Notes under the pieces: generated by a model
The model's database searches: none
The model's input: the letters and a program-made list of their open reading frames with translations, nothing else
Told to the model about the DNA's origin: nothing
Position numbers and translations under genes: made by a program
Shown here: in pieces, positions 5,865 to 18,084 of the stretch
How positions within the stretch are numbered: position 1 is the first letter of the stretch
Layout: each line of letters opens with the position of its first letter
From: an uncultured virus (IMG/VR IMGVR_UViG_3300020048_000101)
Taxonomy: Duplodnaviria > Heunggongvirae > Uroviricota > Caudoviricetes
Virus record (IMG/VR): IMGVR_UViG_3300020048_000101
Span: 54,363-74,362 of that record
DNA length: 20,000 bases
Strand: one strand, 5' to 3'

Positions 5865-6235
5865 GATACACTAGAGAAAACATATTGAATTTAAGAAAAC
5901 AATTAATTAAATATTGTTCAGAAACTAATCTTCGTGACATTGAATTTCTCACTGAGAAATTAATAGACTACCCTACTATGGTGGAAGTTGTTACTGAGTT
6001 AGGTGAAGTACCTAATGGGTACATTAAGACTGAATATGTTTCAACAGGACACGGTGCTTTCGGGGAACCTGAAGGTTATACTATACGTAGAGTTTGTGGT
6101 AGTGGTGATTTAGATAATCGTAGGGTTATGGTGTTTTTAGATTCAGAAGGTGTTCCGGTATTTGCTTGTAATAGAGACGTTGAAAATTTAATTAATATAG
6201 CTAAAGAAGCTCATTCAAATAGTTTTACAATATGA
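5861..6235 (+). CDS. Hypothetical protein
   Basis: ORF track; ATGA overlaps at both ends. Confidence 0.75.
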   Translation: MRYTRENILNLRKQLIKYCSETNLRDIEFLTEKLIDYPTMVEVVTELGEVPNGYIKTEYVSTGHGAFGEPEGYTIRRVCGSGDLDNRRVMVFLDSEGVPVFACNRDVENLINIAKEAHSNSFTI

Positions 6236-6792
6236 AAGATAATAAAGAAAAAGAAATCACCCAAGAGGAGATTAATGAAATTGAAAGATTAACAGGCGGT
6301 AAAATTGGGACACATATATTTGGACCAAATAATGAACACTCATTAGAAAATTCATTATTATCCCCCGACGGAACATATGTTGGTAGTATTAAAGAGGCAA
6401 GATGGTATGTGAGTAATCAGATGATGATTGATGAACAATATCCCCACGGAGTTGCTGCGGTAATCACACCTGAAACATATGGGACCGATAATCCTGTGAT
6501 TGAAGGTATGTGTGGTTATACTCATAGAGGCGCACAATTATTTAGGATTGGTGATAGATTATTTGATGGTAAATATAAACCAACAAAAGAAGATTACCCT
6601 GAAGATGAATGGAATCTATATGAAGAAAATTTCAAAAAATTGTACGAGGAAGAAGATGAATTAGGTAAAAAATGGATGGATGCGGATGGGTTATCATATG
6701 TGATACCATTCAAGTTAAGAGGTTCTAAGATTATTGAAACTATGGAAGACGCTTTTGAGGCTGCTAAAAATATGTCAGATTATTTGAGTTAA
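6232..6792 (+). CDS. Hypothetical phage protein
   Basis: ORF track, 186 aa, acidic. Confidence 0.8.
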   Translation: MKDNKEKEITQEEINEIERLTGGKIGTHIFGPNNEHSLENSLLSPDGTYVGSIKEARWYVSNQMMIDEQYPHGVAAVITPETYGTDNPVIEGMCGYTHRGAQLFRIGDRLFDGKYKPTKEDYPEDEWNLYEENFKKLYEEEDELGKKWMDADGLSYVIPFKLRGSKIIETMEDAFEAAKNMSDYLS

Positions 6793-10836: not shown

Positions 10837-11532
10837 ATGAAGAAAAAGATTGTAGTGTTCACAGGTGCGGGAATTGATAAAGAATCAGGGATTAGCACTT
10901 TTCGTGACGTTCAGGATGGATTATGGGAAAATCATAATATAGATGACGTTTGTACACCATCAGGGTGGAGGAAAGACCGTGAGAAAGTTTTGAACTTTTA
11001 TAACGATAGACGTAAACAATTACCAACAGTTGAACCTAACTCAGCCCACACAGGTTTGGTTAAGTTAGAAGAGAAATATGATGTAACAATTGTTACCCAA
11101 AATGTTTCAGATTTACACGAAAGAGCGGGCTCATCAAAGATATTACATTTACACGGTGAGTTGACTAAGGCTAGAGGTTCTTTATCAAGTAAAGATACCA
11201 TACGTGACATTGGTTATGACGATATTAATGTTGGGGATAAGTGTAAACACGGTTCACAAGTAAGACCCCATATTGTATGGTTTGAAGAAATGCCATTCAA
11301 CGTTGAGGAAAGTTACGAAGTAATGATTGAAGCTGATGTTTTAATCATTATCGGAACTAGTTTAATGATTGGTTATACATTGAGTTTATTATCGAGTGTT
11401 AATGATGATTGTAAGATATATTACATTGACCCCCAACCTAGTAGATATTTAGACAAATATGGTAAAGATGTTACTTACATTGAGAAACCAGCAACTGAAG
11501 GTGTTGATTTAATTTTAAAAGAATTATTATGA
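10837..11532 (+). CDS. cobB: NAD-dependent protein deacylase, Sir2 family class III (CobB-like)
   Basis: TGAGI..ESG..TFR, FYNDRR, TQNVSDLHERAG, LHGEL, RPHIVWF and IGTSL motifs. Confidence 0.92.
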   Translation: MKKKIVVFTGAGIDKESGISTFRDVQDGLWENHNIDDVCTPSGWRKDREKVLNFYNDRRKQLPTVEPNSAHTGLVKLEEKYDVTIVTQNVSDLHERAGSSKILHLHGELTKARGSLSSKDTIRDIGYDDINVGDKCKHGSQVRPHIVWFEEMPFNVEESYEVMIEADVLIIIGTSLMIGYTLSLLSSVNDDCKIYYIDPQPSRYLDKYGKDVTYIEKPATEGVDLILKELL

Positions 11533-12872: not shown

Positions 12873-13541
12873 ATGAAAAAAAATACTATAATTACCGATT
12901 GGTTGGACCAATATGGTGACCCTGAGATTGACAAAAAGGTTGAGATTGAACTTATGAATATAATGAGGAGACAACTCAAGACAGAACATACTCAGGAGTT
13001 AAAAGATTACTTCAATGACCTACAAGAAAAATACAAAAAAGAAGATGGTGAATTCGAAAAACCTTTTATAGTTTATTTGGATATTGATGGTGTGTTGGTT
13101 TCCTATTTAAAGTTGAGGGATTTTGATGATGATGGTCGTCATTCATTCGTTCCCACGGCGGTTGAGACCCTAAACACTATCATTTCAATGTTCAATGCTC
13201 ACATATGTGTCGTCTCAACTTGGGGTCGAAGTTACAGAGATAGACCTGATGAATTTAAAGATTTTCTAATTAGTCGGGGAATTATTGTTAATGGTCTGAC
13301 TATTGGTGATTGTGATGATAGAGCGGGTTATGTTCTGAAGATGAAATCAGAGGGTTACAGACGTTTTCTCATCATAGACGATGAAGTATTAGAATATTAC
13401 AAAAGAGTGTCTGAAATTGGATATAATCGTATTCTCTATTCGAATTCTTGGAGATGCCTTGATGAATATGATTTGGTTGGTGTGTCAAGAAATTTTAATA
13501 GAATTAATGGGTCCGAATATCCTGAGAAATTAATTAACTAA
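12873..13541 (+). CDS. HAD-domain protein (HAD_SAK-like) with N-terminal extension
   Basis: YLDIDGVL, VVSTWG and LIIDDE motifs. Confidence 0.8.
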   Translation: MKKNTIITDWLDQYGDPEIDKKVEIELMNIMRRQLKTEHTQELKDYFNDLQEKYKKEDGEFEKPFIVYLDIDGVLVSYLKLRDFDDDGRHSFVPTAVETLNTIISMFNAHICVVSTWGRSYRDRPDEFKDFLISRGIIVNGLTIGDCDDRAGYVLKMKSEGYRRFLIIDDEVLEYYKRVSEIGYNRILYSNSWRCLDEYDLVGVSRNFNRINGSEYPEKLIN

Positions 13542-15001: not shown

Positions 15002-15271
15002 ATGGTTAAAGAATTGAATATTGGTAAGTTGAATATTGAATTTGTGTTCAGACATAGGTGGGAGAAAAATCAAAGGTTTCTTTCCAATCAGTTTCGTACT
15101 AATGAATTAGGTTTATTTTGGAGGAAAGATATGGTTGTTGGTAGAAGAAAGAAAGGTAAAGCAATGTTTGATTCCGATAATATGGTCCCATCTTATATGT
15201 TTGGGGTTAATTTGATTATCTGTAAATTTTGGTTTAATATTGGTTTTAATTCATTAGATATAAAAATATGA
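15002..15271 (+). CDS. Hypothetical phage protein
   Basis: ORF track (FVFRHRWEK). Confidence 0.75.
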   Translation: MVKELNIGKLNIEFVFRHRWEKNQRFLSNQFRTNELGLFWRKDMVVGRRKKGKAMFDSDNMVPSYMFGVNLIICKFWFNIGFNSLDIKI

Positions 15272-15810
15272 CTTTAGCTGAAAAACTTAAACAAAGATTG
15301 ATTTTTGAGGTTGAAAGAATTGCCTGTAAATGTCAAATATATTATAATCCGAACACTAGAAGTATTTGGTTTATCAATCCTGAAACAAAATTTTGGTATT
15401 TTGAATACTCATTAAATGGTGATTTATGGTGGAGATATACTGGTTTTAATATTTTTAAAGATTTATATCGAATGGATGATAAAACATTTAATAATATTAT
15501 TTCTGAATGGGTGGAAGAGGCCCTAAATTGTAAGGTAGTTGGAACACTAGCAATGTTGAATCCACCTGAAGGAACGGTGGAAGAGACCCTAAATTGTAAG
15601 GTACTCTCAACAAGATTTGTAAATATGGACGCATCATTGAAGGTGGAAGAGGCCCTAAATTGTAAGGTACTCACAACTGCTAGGGCTTTTACAGATTCAA
15701 CCCTATTGGTGGAAGAGACCCTAAAATGTAAGGTAATAACAATTGAACCTTATGAACCTTTCAACGAAGTTAATACTTATAAAATAATTAATGAAAGTCA
15801 AACAATATGA
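15268..15810 (+). CDS. Hypothetical protein with four 22-aa C-terminal units (VEE[AT]L[NK]CKV plus a variable segment)
   Basis: ATGA overlaps at both ends; internal repeats; paralog of 1464..1832. Confidence 0.8.
   Translation: MTLAEKLKQRLIFEVERIACKCQIYYNPNTRSIWFINPETKFWYFEYSLNGDLWWRYTGFNIFKDLYRMDDKTFNNIISEWVEEALNCKVVGTLAMLNPPEGTVEETLNCKVLSTRFVNMDASLKVEEALNCKVLTTARAFTDSTLLVEETLKCKVITIEPYEPFNEVNTYKIINESQTI
15510..15735 (+). repeat. Array of four 28-bp direct repeats GGTGGAAGAG[G/A]CCCTAAA[T/A]TGTAAGGTA with three distinct 38-bp spacers
   Basis: Copies at 15510, 15576, 15642 and 15708; exact 66-bp period. Confidence 0.95.
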
Positions 15811-16214
15811 GAACTGCGAAAGAACTATACCCCTCTTATTGGGAAGAAGAAGAAAAGAACGGAAATTTCTATGGTCCTGGTAATTACCAACCAATCATTG
15901 ATGAACTTGGTAATGTCTTAGTTCAGGTGGATGATAATGACTACCAAGGGGATAGTAGAGTTTTATACGAAAAAGATGGTAAGTATGGTTACCTAATCTT
16001 TGGTTGGGGTAGTTGTTCAGGTTGTGATGGATTACAAGCCTGTGAAAACATAAAAGACATTCAATCATTAATGGATGGTATAGAATCCGATATTAAATGG
16101 TTTGATTCGTTGGAGGAACTTAAACAATACTTCAAAGACAAAGATTGGAAACTTGAGTTTAGTTGGCACGCGGATGAAACAAAAGAGTTTATTGATAAAG
16201 TAATTAATTATTAA
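15807..16214 (+). CDS. Conserved phage hypothetical protein (GWGSCSGCD motif)
   Basis: DYQGDS...GYLIFGWGSCSGCD. Confidence 0.8.
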   Translation: MRTAKELYPSYWEEEEKNGNFYGPGNYQPIIDELGNVLVQVDDNDYQGDSRVLYEKDGKYGYLIFGWGSCSGCDGLQACENIKDIQSLMDGIESDIKWFDSLEELKQYFKDKDWKLEFSWHADETKEFIDKVINY

Positions 16215-16580: not shown

Positions 16581-17480
16581 ATGAAAAATAGTTATCGTAA
16601 AATTAGGCATATAGAACAATGTAATATTTTACTTGAACAAAGAACAAATGGTAAACTTGATATTTTCAAAACTCACGAGGATGTTAGAAAATTTCAGAAT
16701 TGGGTTATTAGTGTTAAAAAAGATAAAAACATTTTAGGGTCTGCAGGTGCTGATGCGGATTGGGGTCCTAGTACTAAAAATGCTTGGACTAAATATGGTA
16801 AAGAATATTTAAATAAAAATAATCCATCAAGTGATAAAACCCCAAAAAATTCTACTAGTCTTTTTGATACCGCAGTAAATTTCTTTAAAAAGTTTACTGA
16901 AGATAAATCACCATCGGCTAACTCTTCGTTATTGTTTGATGGGGATTCACTAATTTGGTTGTCAGATGGTTCTCAAATTAAAAGATGGGGTGCGACTAGT
17001 GGGGTTAATTTATTAAATGCTGAACCTAAACAATGGTTACAAGTAATTAAAAAACCTTTTACCACTACACAAGAATTACAAAAACTCCCAAATTTTGGGC
17101 CAGCACCTGAAGGTCAATATACTATTGGTAAATTACAAACAAGTCGTTTAGAAAAAACAAACCCTTTTATGGATTTTGTGAGGTATATTTTTGGGTCAAA
17201 TCAATCAGGTCACGATTGGAATACCAATACCGCAGGAACAAAAATTTCTTGGGGTAATTACAGGGCATCTCTTAACCCAAAATCAGGTACGAATACTTTT
17301 GGAAGGTCTAATTTTTATGTTCACGGAGGTGCTTTTCCAGCATCTCACGGTTGTATTGATTTAACTTCTGATATGGAAAGTTTTGCTAAATTTTATTCTG
17401 CTTGGTGTGCTAAATTTAAAAAAAATAGTATCCCTTTAACGATTAAATACAATAAAAGAATAATTGATAGAATTTTGTAA
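16581..17480 (+). CDS. Peptidoglycan-binding-like domain plus Tlde1/DUF2778-like L,D-transpeptidase-fold domain
   Basis: VRKFQNW...GADADWGPSTKNAW (PG_binding_1-like). GPAPEGQYTI...GRSNFYVHGG...SHGCI carries the His/Cys catalytic motif. Confidence 0.75.
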   Translation: MKNSYRKIRHIEQCNILLEQRTNGKLDIFKTHEDVRKFQNWVISVKKDKNILGSAGADADWGPSTKNAWTKYGKEYLNKNNPSSDKTPKNSTSLFDTAVNFFKKFTEDKSPSANSSLLFDGDSLIWLSDGSQIKRWGATSGVNLLNAEPKQWLQVIKKPFTTTQELQKLPNFGPAPEGQYTIGKLQTSRLEKTNPFMDFVRYIFGSNQSGHDWNTNTAGTKISWGNYRASLNPKSGTNTFGRSNFYVHGGAFPASHGCIDLTSDMESFAKFYSAWCAKFKKNSIPLTIKYNKRIIDRIL

Positions 17481-17509: not shown

Positions 17510-17517
17510 TATATTTG
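17510..17517 (+). promoter_or_regulatory. Bacteroidota-type -7 element TATATTTG
   Basis: TAnnTTTG match upstream of the ATG at 17542. Confidence 0.6.
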
Positions 17518-17541
17518 TTAAACAAATTAAACTTTAAGATT

Positions 17542-18084
17542 ATGAAAAAGACAATTTTATTTATTTTATCAGTAGTAACGTTATTCGTTGTAATTTCTTC
17601 ATTCACATTAAAAAGTGATGACGATTTATTTGGTATTGCTAACCAAAAACTTGTTGAGTATAATATTAGAAAAAGTAATTATGTTATTCTAATTGATTAT
17701 ACTAAACCAATAACATCTGAAAGACTTTATGTTTTAAATATGAAGACAAATGAGATTGTGATTAAATCAACTGTTAGTCATTCATTTAAATCAGGGGTAT
17801 TATATCCGAGTGATTATAGTAATGTTAGTGGTAGTAATAAATCATCTAAAGGTGGGTTTATCGCTAAAGGAACTTATAACGGAGGATTCGGATACTCAAT
17901 GGTTATTAGAGGTTTGGATAAAGGGGTTAATGATAATGTTGAAAGTAGAAAAGTTATATTCCACTCGACTAAAAAAATGGTAACACCTTGGTCAAATGGT
18001 TGTTTCGCAACACCTGAAGATGTTAATCAAAAATTAATTGACTTAACTAAAAACGGAACATTTATTTATGTTATCTCAGAATAA
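17542..18084 (+). CDS. Exported murein L,D-transpeptidase catalytic domain protein (YkuD_2-like)
   Basis: Signal peptide; IDYTKP..ERLYV, VSH, SNVSGSNKSSKG, GLDKGVNDN and IFH...SNGCFA motifs. Start revised to 17542. Confidence 0.85.
   Translation: MKKTILFILSVVTLFVVISSFTLKSDDDLFGIANQKLVEYNIRKSNYVILIDYTKPITSERLYVLNMKTNEIVIKSTVSHSFKSGVLYPSDYSNVSGSNKSSKGGFIAKGTYNGGFGYSMVIRGLDKGVNDNVESRKVIFHSTKKMVTPWSNGCFATPEDVNQKLIDLTKNGTFIYVISE

Follow-up and report, generated by a model that had tools for sequence, protein, structure and literature searches.

The window analyzed here, a 20,000-nt stretch forming the last 20 kb of a 74-kb IMG/VR record from a lake-water giant phage (IMGVR_UViG_3300020048_000101, positions 54,363 to 74,362; the record is estimated to be about 25% complete), was found to contain a gene, P0001, in which a 36-nt direct repeat alternates with unrelated 30-nt segments and the whole array is read in frame behind a conserved N-terminal domain (N-domain). 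P0001 belongs to a large gene family with this layout, its repeat is constrained at the nucleotide level, and modules have been replaced between near relatives with the borders lying inside repeats. We put at roughly one-half the probability that this is an array of modules under dual constraint, as protein and as nucleic acid, that is shuffled by recombination. According to this model, 22-residue modules (12 constant and 10 variable residues), which are predicted to be disordered, would be read in frame behind an N-domain of about 81 residues, and the 36-nt repeat would be a cis element acting mainly as a recombination joint. Whole 66-nt modules would be gained, lost, and replaced through exchange between repeats, whether within an array, between tandem paralogs, or between co-infecting relatives, and a constant scaffold would thus come to display a different set of variable peptides in each phage lineage.

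Anatomy and translation of the array and its gene family

An earlier note on this DNA had described four 28-nt copies at an exact period of 66 nt, with copies 1 and 3 identical, and a repeat search bore this out. The sequence GGTGGAAGAGRCCCTAAAWTGTAAGGTA occurs four times, at 15510, 15576, 15642, and 15708 (start-to-start distances of 66, 66, and 66 nt), and no copies appeared in any of 200 dinucleotide shuffles. Repeat extension added 8 nt to the 28 noted earlier, giving a repeat of 36 nt and an array spanning 15510-15743, and family-wide conservation placed the repeat borders at the base preceding a GTG codon and at ...ACAAC, leaving 30 nt rather than 38 nt for the variable part. Thus, the proposed constant-variable layout stood while its dimensions of 28 and 38 nt were revised by extension and conservation, and the approximately 8 nt said to be shared by the spacer starts are really the 3' end of the 36-nt repeat. 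The protein does have the predicted hypervariable segments, each of about 10 rather than about 13 residues. The copies differ only at GCC/ACC (Ala/Thr) and AAT/AAA (Asn/Lys), all of these differences being non-synonymous as the note had stated, and its GC count of 13/28 was also correct. The three 30-nt variable segments are mutually unrelated, all four units are in frame within the open reading frame (ORF), and no further repeat copies were found elsewhere in the 74-kb record. The window has a GC content of about 32% and small ORFs that lie mostly on one strand.

According to the ORF list and its translation, P0001 (15268-15810, plus strand, as are all of its parts; 180 aa) comprises the N-domain, the four-repeat array, and a C-terminal tail. 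The N-domain (15268-15510, 81 aa) has Trp as its final residue, and repeat 1 begins with the third base of the codon for this Trp. Repeat 1 (15510-15545, 36 nt) is read as (W)VEEALNCKVVGT and has an atypical 3' end, GTTGGAAC. It is followed by variable segment 1 (15546-15575, 30 nt), encoding LAMLNPPEGT, a cassette that recurs in several relatives, and then by repeat 2 (15576-15611, 36 nt), where Logan contigs from three lake runs end or branch. Variable segment 2 (15612-15641, 30 nt) has no exact match elsewhere in IMG/VR. The first 28 nt of repeat 3 (15642-15677, 36 nt) are the same as those of repeat 1, and variable segment 3 (15678-15707, 30 nt), encoding ARAFTDSTLL, is shared at 100% with locus L099 and protein P0005. 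The terminal repeat 4 (15708-15743) has a degenerate 3' end (...ATAACAAT) and leads into a conserved C-terminal tail, EPYEPFNEVNTYKIINESQTI, and stop codon (15744-15810), the stop overlapping the start of the next gene at 15807.

P0001 matched no Pfam or PHROG family. A protein search gave 105 homologs at an E value of 0.01 or below among 332 candidates, and the 14 closest form a ladder of 22-aa steps, with lengths of 136, 158, 180, 202, or 224 aa. These share a layout of approximately 80 N-terminal residues, then VEE[AT]LNCKV[LV][ST]T plus about 10 unrelated residues in each unit, and finally a constant tail. Across the family, arrays of 2 to 13 or more units follow the folded N-domain of about 80 residues, and certain cassettes (IKSFTPSNPT, QSQPLSRLQR, KHTNWKFIKK, and LAMLNPPEGT) recur in different arrays and combinations. 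An alignment-based scan of IMG/VR yielded 51 loci, often having two or three paralogs in tandem, on contigs of up to 326 kb, and a scan of metagenome contigs with a single protein yielded 22 further loci. The 3.5 kb around the gene had no match in phage DNA, and the array alone gave one 30-nt match in INPHARED at an E value of 10 or below, attributable to chance. The family is a large and wholly unannotated one of giant freshwater phages.

The N-domain is conserved across the family alignments (A1 and A4). In an AlphaFold2 model built from 31 sequences, residues 1 to 88 had a predicted local distance difference test score (pLDDT) of about 90 and formed a helix, four strands, and two helices, and residues 90 to 165 had a pLDDT below 50, a poor model that does not in itself prove disorder. 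The array begins at the end of the last N-domain helix, and in the model the first repeat prolongs that helix. No standout match to the fold was obtained among 48,161 PDB chains (VIA-align, best Z score of 4.6), a PDB profile search returned 0 matches, and the ESM Atlas contained only viral hypothetical clusters with scores of 0.80 to 0.82.

Translation of the array was assessed over 168 unique units. Stop codons were found in 0 of 1,848 in-frame codons compared with 64 to 165 per 1,680 to 1,848 in the other five frames, a contrast that is inflated by the gathering of the genes via their ORFs; nevertheless, open arrays of 7 to 13 units cannot be attributed to chance. Among 570 repeat matches at 77 loci, a spacing of 66 nt occurred 420 times, 63 nt 13 times, and 69 nt once, while spacings of 64, 65, 67, and 68 nt never occurred, the larger gaps being copies missed by the pattern. 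Most of the matches (498 of 570) lay in an ORF with a recognizable upstream N-domain motif, the remainder being mostly at locus edges or missed by the motif, and at none of the 77 loci was an array found apart from an N-domain gene. In three genes (L111/L112 and L113), the array was broken by a stop or frameshift. The GC contents at codon positions 1, 2, and 3 of the variable parts (0.47, 0.38, and 0.30) follow the same gradient as those of the flanking ORFs (0.40, 0.31, and 0.26), indicating that the variable parts are native coding sequence and not random captured DNA, which argues against the insertion of random foreign DNA. Differences between loci in the cassette [YHD]FDENENRG are mostly synonymous. 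The open frame, together with the coding-like variable segments, indicates that the tail is translated.

A leader followed by a repeated constant flank and a hypervariable core is also the layout of a multi-core peptide precursor. The cyanobactin precursor PatE has a constant leader, repeated constant flanks that are conserved even as DNA, and hypervariable short cores. By analogy, the N-domain would be the leader, the 12 constant residues the recognition sequence, and the approximately 10-residue segments cores to be cut out or modified. In addition to the layout, the predicted disorder of the tail and the presence in most constant parts of a conserved Cys and a Ser/Thr-Thr pair would suit such a role. 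We nevertheless regard it as very improbable. Pfam revealed no protease, cyclase, dehydratase, or other maturation enzyme among the 59 ORFs of the record, many of which have no family at all, and entire lineages have H, S, Y, or F in place of the Cys. Unlike typical leaders, the N-domain is a folded domain of 80 residues, and the arrays that are out of frame in a sister family (described below) would be left unexplained. Compared with precursors of the PatE type, then, the phage gene has no maturation enzymes nearby, a large and folded N-domain, and a unit length that is fixed to the nucleotide.

We consider the gp38 adhesin of T-even phages to be the closest working analog. The gp38 proteins of T2/T6-type phages (PMC3157838) resemble the present family in that conserved motifs alternate with hypervariable segments behind an N-terminal domain that is constant. 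The number of segments in gp38 is fixed, with four hypervariable segments and five glycine-rich motifs forming a folded core; its motifs are not copies of a single DNA unit and lie at inconstant distances. The phage family differs in having 2 to 13 or more units, an exact 66-nt period, fixation of synonymous sites, and a tail predicted to be disordered. Nor was membership in the gp38 family indicated, since there was no Pfam or PHROG match, the motif VEExLNCKV is not glycine rich, and the neighbors are small accessory genes.

Nucleotide-level constraint and replacement of modules

In the 168 unique units, conservation spans the base preceding the GTG codon to position 35, and positions 36 to 65 are random. 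The base preceding the repeat, although it occupies the third position of a variable codon that is random in other respects, is G in 158 of the 168 units and in 46 of 47 genes, each gene being represented by one consensus repeat. At the four-fold site of the first Thr codon, 165 of 168 units have A, whereas the third base of the next Thr codon is free. Other third positions are likewise fixed over the 47 genes: GTG in 45, GAA in 45, AAT in 45, AAG in 46, and ACA in all 47. As a control, the conserved residues in the N-domains of the same genes use their synonymous codons freely (Tyr, T17/C17; Phe, T25/C22; Glu, G32/A12), and N-domain pairwise identity averages 57% and is 28% at its lowest. The fixed codons (GTG, GAG, and AAG) are the rarer ones, with K and E codons in the variable parts ending in G or C in only 25 to 27% of cases. 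Between lineages, the repeat differs at codons 4, 7, and 10 in their entirety. The presence of free positions beside frozen synonymous positions makes the repeat look like a recognized nucleic-acid motif and, being conserved as nucleotides, the repeat is therefore also a cis-acting DNA (or RNA) element. The constraint at the DNA or RNA level that the note had proposed is thereby supported, with synonymous sites fixed over 47 genes and free in the N-domains of those same genes.

These data bear on whether P0001 is simply an ordinary, fast-evolving protein repeat, in which the 12 constant residues would have a structural or binding role and the 10 variable residues would be loops under diversifying selection. 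The nucleotide identity would then be a by-product of unequal crossing-over or gene conversion with no cis function, and the sister arrays would be decaying pseudogenes. The open frame, the strict period, and the coding-like composition are all in agreement with this explanation, as are the start of the array at the end of the last N-domain helix, the continuation of that helix by the first repeat, and the conservation of the peptide V-E-E-x-L-x-x-[KE]-V-x-T-T across subfamilies. Gene conversion, however, leaves unexplained how the synonymous bases of nine codons and the preceding base could be fixed at N-domain identities of 28 to 40% while three codons vary; concerted evolution alone would not yield frozen synonymous sites together with varying codons 4, 7, and 10. 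The use of the rarer codons (GTG, GAG, and AAG) and the absence of a predicted fold for the repeats also tell against it, and out-of-frame arrays that have identical repeats, are mostly off by 1 nt in either direction in the first spacer, and in one case occur in five contigs are unlike random decay. On balance, an ordinary protein repeat appears to us an improbable account.

Replacement of modules was evident on comparison of the window gene with its relative at locus L099. Their N-domains are identical at 241 of 243 bases, and the last approximately 170 nt are fully identical. Between these identical blocks, two variable segments in one gene correspond to three unrelated ones in the other, and the borders of the exchange lie inside repeats. 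The note had called for comparison across relatives, and unit number and content indeed differ between near-identical phages. Pairwise distances among 244 unique segments revealed 70 pairs at 1 to 6 differences, none at 7 to 10, and the rest at 11 or more, as for random sequences; sparse sampling of intermediate relatives could contribute to the gap. Parts of the stretch were present in 20 lake or freshwater metagenome runs, of which four were examined. In these four, contigs tracked the N-domain and broke at the repeat, other segments were found behind the same repeat, and short repeat-only contigs had a higher depth. One 151-nt contig with a depth of 4 from another lake metagenome (run X3) joined 15265 precisely to 15805, skipping the whole repeat gene, indicating that the gene is absent from, and dispensable in, a relative. 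Selection probably acts on the variable peptides.

With respect to the mechanism, the earlier note had invoked a dedicated inserter or hypermutator. Such a mechanism may exist, but homologous recombination between repeats is sufficient to account for the swapping, which we infer to be carried out by general recombination and not by a dedicated enzyme. Searches for reverse transcriptase (RVT_1), Cas1, and Cas13b were negative in all five related giant-phage records (four 100% complete and one 82% complete). No reverse transcriptase, recombinase, or CRISPR-associated (Cas) protein was detected by Pfam among the 59 ORFs scanned in the 74-kb record (31 in the window and 28 in the rest), which itself represents about 25% of a genome. 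Diversity-generating retroelements, which consist of a reverse transcriptase and a template repeat, alter adenine positions in one variable region. The phage family is similar in that hypervariable segments arise in a phage protein through a DNA-level process, but it differs in the lack of RVT_1 in the five related records, in the lack of an extra repeat copy in the record, and in having whole segments that are unrelated rather than point mutated.

Sister arrays and the resemblance to CRISPR repeats

A sister family of small genes whose products start with MKYIITES... is carried by related giant phages. BLASTP of P0001 against the sister N-domain found nothing (E value of 40), and the link is by profile comparison only, which identified the sister N-domain as a distant homolog (hhalign probability of 91.9%, E value of 6.9e-7, 74 columns); both N-domains end in Trp. 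Behind the sister Trp are 36-nt repeats of the same theme, one of which has GTTG...CAAC ends. Among 18 sister spacers from eight lineages, the lengths were 25 nt (1), 29 nt (7), 30 nt (7), and 31 nt (3), so that the frame changes from one repeat to the next and the ORF terminates within the second repeat. The spacers are mutually unrelated, the repeats are identical within an array, with 3' degeneracy in the last one. One sister array is identical in five contigs. In most of the out-of-frame arrays, the first spacer deviates by exactly +/-1 nt, and a spacing that is not a multiple of three was found in 8 of 23 distinct arrays at sister loci versus 2 of 112 at main-family loci. The bases TACAAAT(T)GGAGGTG are shared by two subfamilies but read in different frames. 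From the out-of-frame arrays, which translated repeats cannot explain, we argue that the repeat-spacer array is fundamentally a feature of nucleic acid.

Two further observations were made on the sister genes. At L206:3766-4066, L181:2734-2966, and L172:2290-2540 (minus strand), the sister protein, as it often does, ends in a +1-frame reading of the second repeat (WWRNITNW... or LLNIPYKWR), and the same C-terminal peptide therefore recurs across lineages. At L188:2972-3190, a gene with the MKYIITES start contains another kind of in-frame repeat, with a period of 60 nt (SLGNLT.VGG...), which gave us the impression of being reminiscent of leucine-rich repeats.

The geometry of 36 + 30 nt and a resemblance to Cas13b repeats prompted a comparison with the class 2 repeats of Bacteroidia. 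According to a published description (bioRxiv 10.1101/092577), a type VI-B repeat is 36 nt long, contains a poly-U loop, and has 5'-GUUG/CAAC-3' at its ends. Of 401 Bacteroidia genomes searched by pattern, three contained true arrays, two of the arrays adjoining Cas9; the array of genome G154 adjoins Cas13b (NF038190, E value of 1.7e-246). Cas13b was present in 16 of 301 genomes of the order to which G154 belongs, and eight of the repeats from these 16 were aligned (A2). The same pattern also matched dispersed short GGTTGG/CCAACC-rich repeats in one Bacteroidia genome (G234:C26:448013 and C27:164448), which represent a chance match to the end pattern and not an array.

The geometry of the phage array, 36 + 30 = 66 nt, is that of real Bacteroidia arrays. 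With a weight matrix from the eight VI-B repeats, phage units scored a median of +6.1 bits, only in the register fixed independently by the conservation analysis, with other offsets scoring -23 to -64; the background mean was -51.8 (standard deviation of 11.9), and 34 of 1.2 million background 36-mers reached the phage median. The best phage unit was identical to the G154 repeat at 28 of 36 positions, the median identity to the closest real repeat being 22 of 36. When the 12 phage repeat types were aligned globally with gaps, 11 scored above all 300 shuffles, with z scores of 2.8 to 5.3 in the sense orientation and up to 6.1 in antisense, although the similarity test was made after a resemblance to Cas13b repeats had been noticed and thus carries some post hoc bias.

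Such similarity could mean that the array is CRISPR derived or CRISPR interacting, the 36-nt repeat being a diverged Bacteroidota class 2 repeat (VI-B or II-C) that acts as nucleic acid. It might then be a decoy or sponge for host components, a substrate for the insertion of units by the host adaptation machinery, or a Cas-less guide array, and translation would be a secondary adaptation because 36 + 30 nt happens to equal 22 codons. We judge this to be unlikely, but several properties would fit it in addition to the geometry and the sequence scores. The sister arrays are CRISPR-like in their unrelated spacers of 30 +/- 1 nt, identical repeats, degenerate terminal repeat, and, in one case, GTTG...CAAC ends. 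The synonymous sites of the repeat are frozen, and neighbors of counter-defense type (Tad6-like, SIR2, and an RNA-repair HAD domain; see below) are present. The host probably does not use Shine-Dalgarno (SD) sequences, as is the case for Bacteroidota, and a survey of solitary viral CRISPR repeats reports candidates for all types except VI (PMC10651486). In its specific form, to which we likewise give only a small chance, the repeat would be a descendant or functional mimic of a class 2 CRISPR repeat, in an array fused to a conserved gene, and its frozen bases would be recognized by the host CRISPR machinery or by the N-domain.

The RNA fold did not agree with this proposal, and no spacer target was found. 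No phage repeat from the window and 48 related loci matched a VI-B covariance model (R1, 12 base pairs), the best score being 15.3 bits for an antisense copy (E value of 0.4 to 0.8); the phage units retain 5 or 6 of the 12 pairs and have lost the inner stem. The structure of the array RNA was not unusual (z score of -0.98), and an Rfam scan of 15200-15900 at E values up to 10 placed no CRISPR-DR family on the repeats. One CRISPR-DR21 match at 15371-15406 (E value of 0.9) lies inside the N-domain and was dismissed as chance. The phage repeat pattern formed no array in bacterial genomes of 185,579 species, where its 37 single matches were all due to chance, and the five related phage records lacked Cas13b and Cas1. 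None of the target searches gave a protospacer, whether in 650 kb of flanks, in the phages' own complete or near-complete genomes, in INPHARED, or in exact scans of IMG/VR with three spacers, and 113 host spacers did not match the phage loci. Furthermore, the full coding periodicity of the variable segments is unexpected for captured random DNA, and the arrays are always tied to an N-domain gene. Sequence similarity without the fold indicates a repeat that is CRISPR-like in its length, in its spacing, and, chiefly over the 3' 20 nt, in some of its sequence but is not a structural mimic. The CRISPR likeness noted earlier survives in geometry and in similarity to Bacteroidia class 2 repeats, but not in RNA fold.

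Feature by feature, the phage array shares with VI-B and II-C arrays a direct repeat of about 36 nt, a unique spacer of about 30 nt, a CAAC 3' end, a degenerate terminal repeat, and the gain and loss of units. Unlike these arrays, its repeat starts with GGTG rather than 5'-GUUG, and it has no U-rich loop, hairpin, cas genes, leader, or targets found; an N-domain gene always contains it or ends in it, and it is translated in the branch to which the window belongs. It also resembles RNA anti-CRISPRs (Racrs) and solitary repeat units, which according to PMC10651486 are virus borne, resemble the host repeat, lack cas genes, and lie among counter-defense genes. Racrs are non-coding, usually single, and close mimics of the host repeat, including its fold, with none reported for type VI, whereas the phage array has many copies with variable segments between them, is coding, and lacks the fold.

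Several points weigh against the model of a translated array shuffled by recombination. The expected footprints of recombination were seen, but there was no direct observation of it, and the evidence for translation includes the inflated stop-codon contrast. The fixation of the same synonymous bases at N-domain identities of 28 to 40%, with codons 4, 7, and 10 varying, points to base recognition by some factor. The absence of segment pairs at 7 to 10 differences leaves the source of new segments unexplained, a translated tail does not explain the out-of-frame sister arrays, and the significant similarity to Bacteroidia Cas13b/Cas9 repeats has to be treated as incidental.

Gene neighborhood and implications

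Upstream of the repeat gene on the plus strand, an ORF of 186 aa (6232-6792) matched Pfam Tad6, a type I Thoeris inhibitor (E value of 6.2e-13; 49.5 bits against a cutoff of 27), and is a candidate anti-defense gene. Also on the plus strand were a SIR2-family protein at 10837-11532 (E value of 9e-36), a HAD domain of "Swiss Army Knife" RNA-repair proteins at 12873-13541 (E value of 4.6e-10), and two adjacent L,D-transpeptidase-like genes at 16581-17480 (YkuD, E value of 1.4e-6) and 17515-18084 (YkuD_2, E value of 2.8e-36). The Tad6-like, SIR2, HAD, and L,D-transpeptidase-like genes make the region look like a counter-defense or accessory island, and this neighborhood suggests a role for the repeat gene in host interaction or counter-defense. 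Across 54 loci, the conserved neighbors were only paralogous small-protein families, with no enzyme family common to most loci. Outside the window, record G000 contains an ORF of 2,411 aa without a Pfam family (G000:C1:21713-28948) followed by three tandem Gly_rich_2 paralogs, as well as a sigma-70 factor, DnaJ, and two DNA methyltransferases. None of its 86 ORFs of at least 100 aa had an upstream SD-like core, compared with 6.7% of random 20-mers, and the upstream regions were 83% A+T, which hints at a host that does not use SD sequences, such as a member of the Bacteroidota. Internal SD pausing was considered but not adopted, since the host seems not to use SD sequences, and neither an iteron or origin function, as with lambda ori inside gene O, nor programmed frameshifting in the sister arrays was adopted.

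No description of the family was found in full-text searches for such a phage repeat protein and for viral CRISPR-repeat mimics. It comprises 105 clusters from one search and is found on tens of giant-phage contigs. Routine practice drops "CRISPR arrays" that lie inside ORFs as protein repeats, but here both descriptions hold: although translated, the array has a repeat with the behavior of a nucleic-acid element, and in a sister family the same array is found untranslated. Were the link to CRISPR true, this would be the first type VI repeat mimic or derivative carried by a virus and an example of a CRISPR array recruited into coding sequence, yielding a phage protein that is built and diversified like an array. 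If instead the plain reading of recombining modules is true, these phages would provide a widespread natural display of exchangeable 10-residue peptides on a constant scaffold via a 36-nt joint, and a tractable model of how phages generate diversity without a reverse transcriptase.

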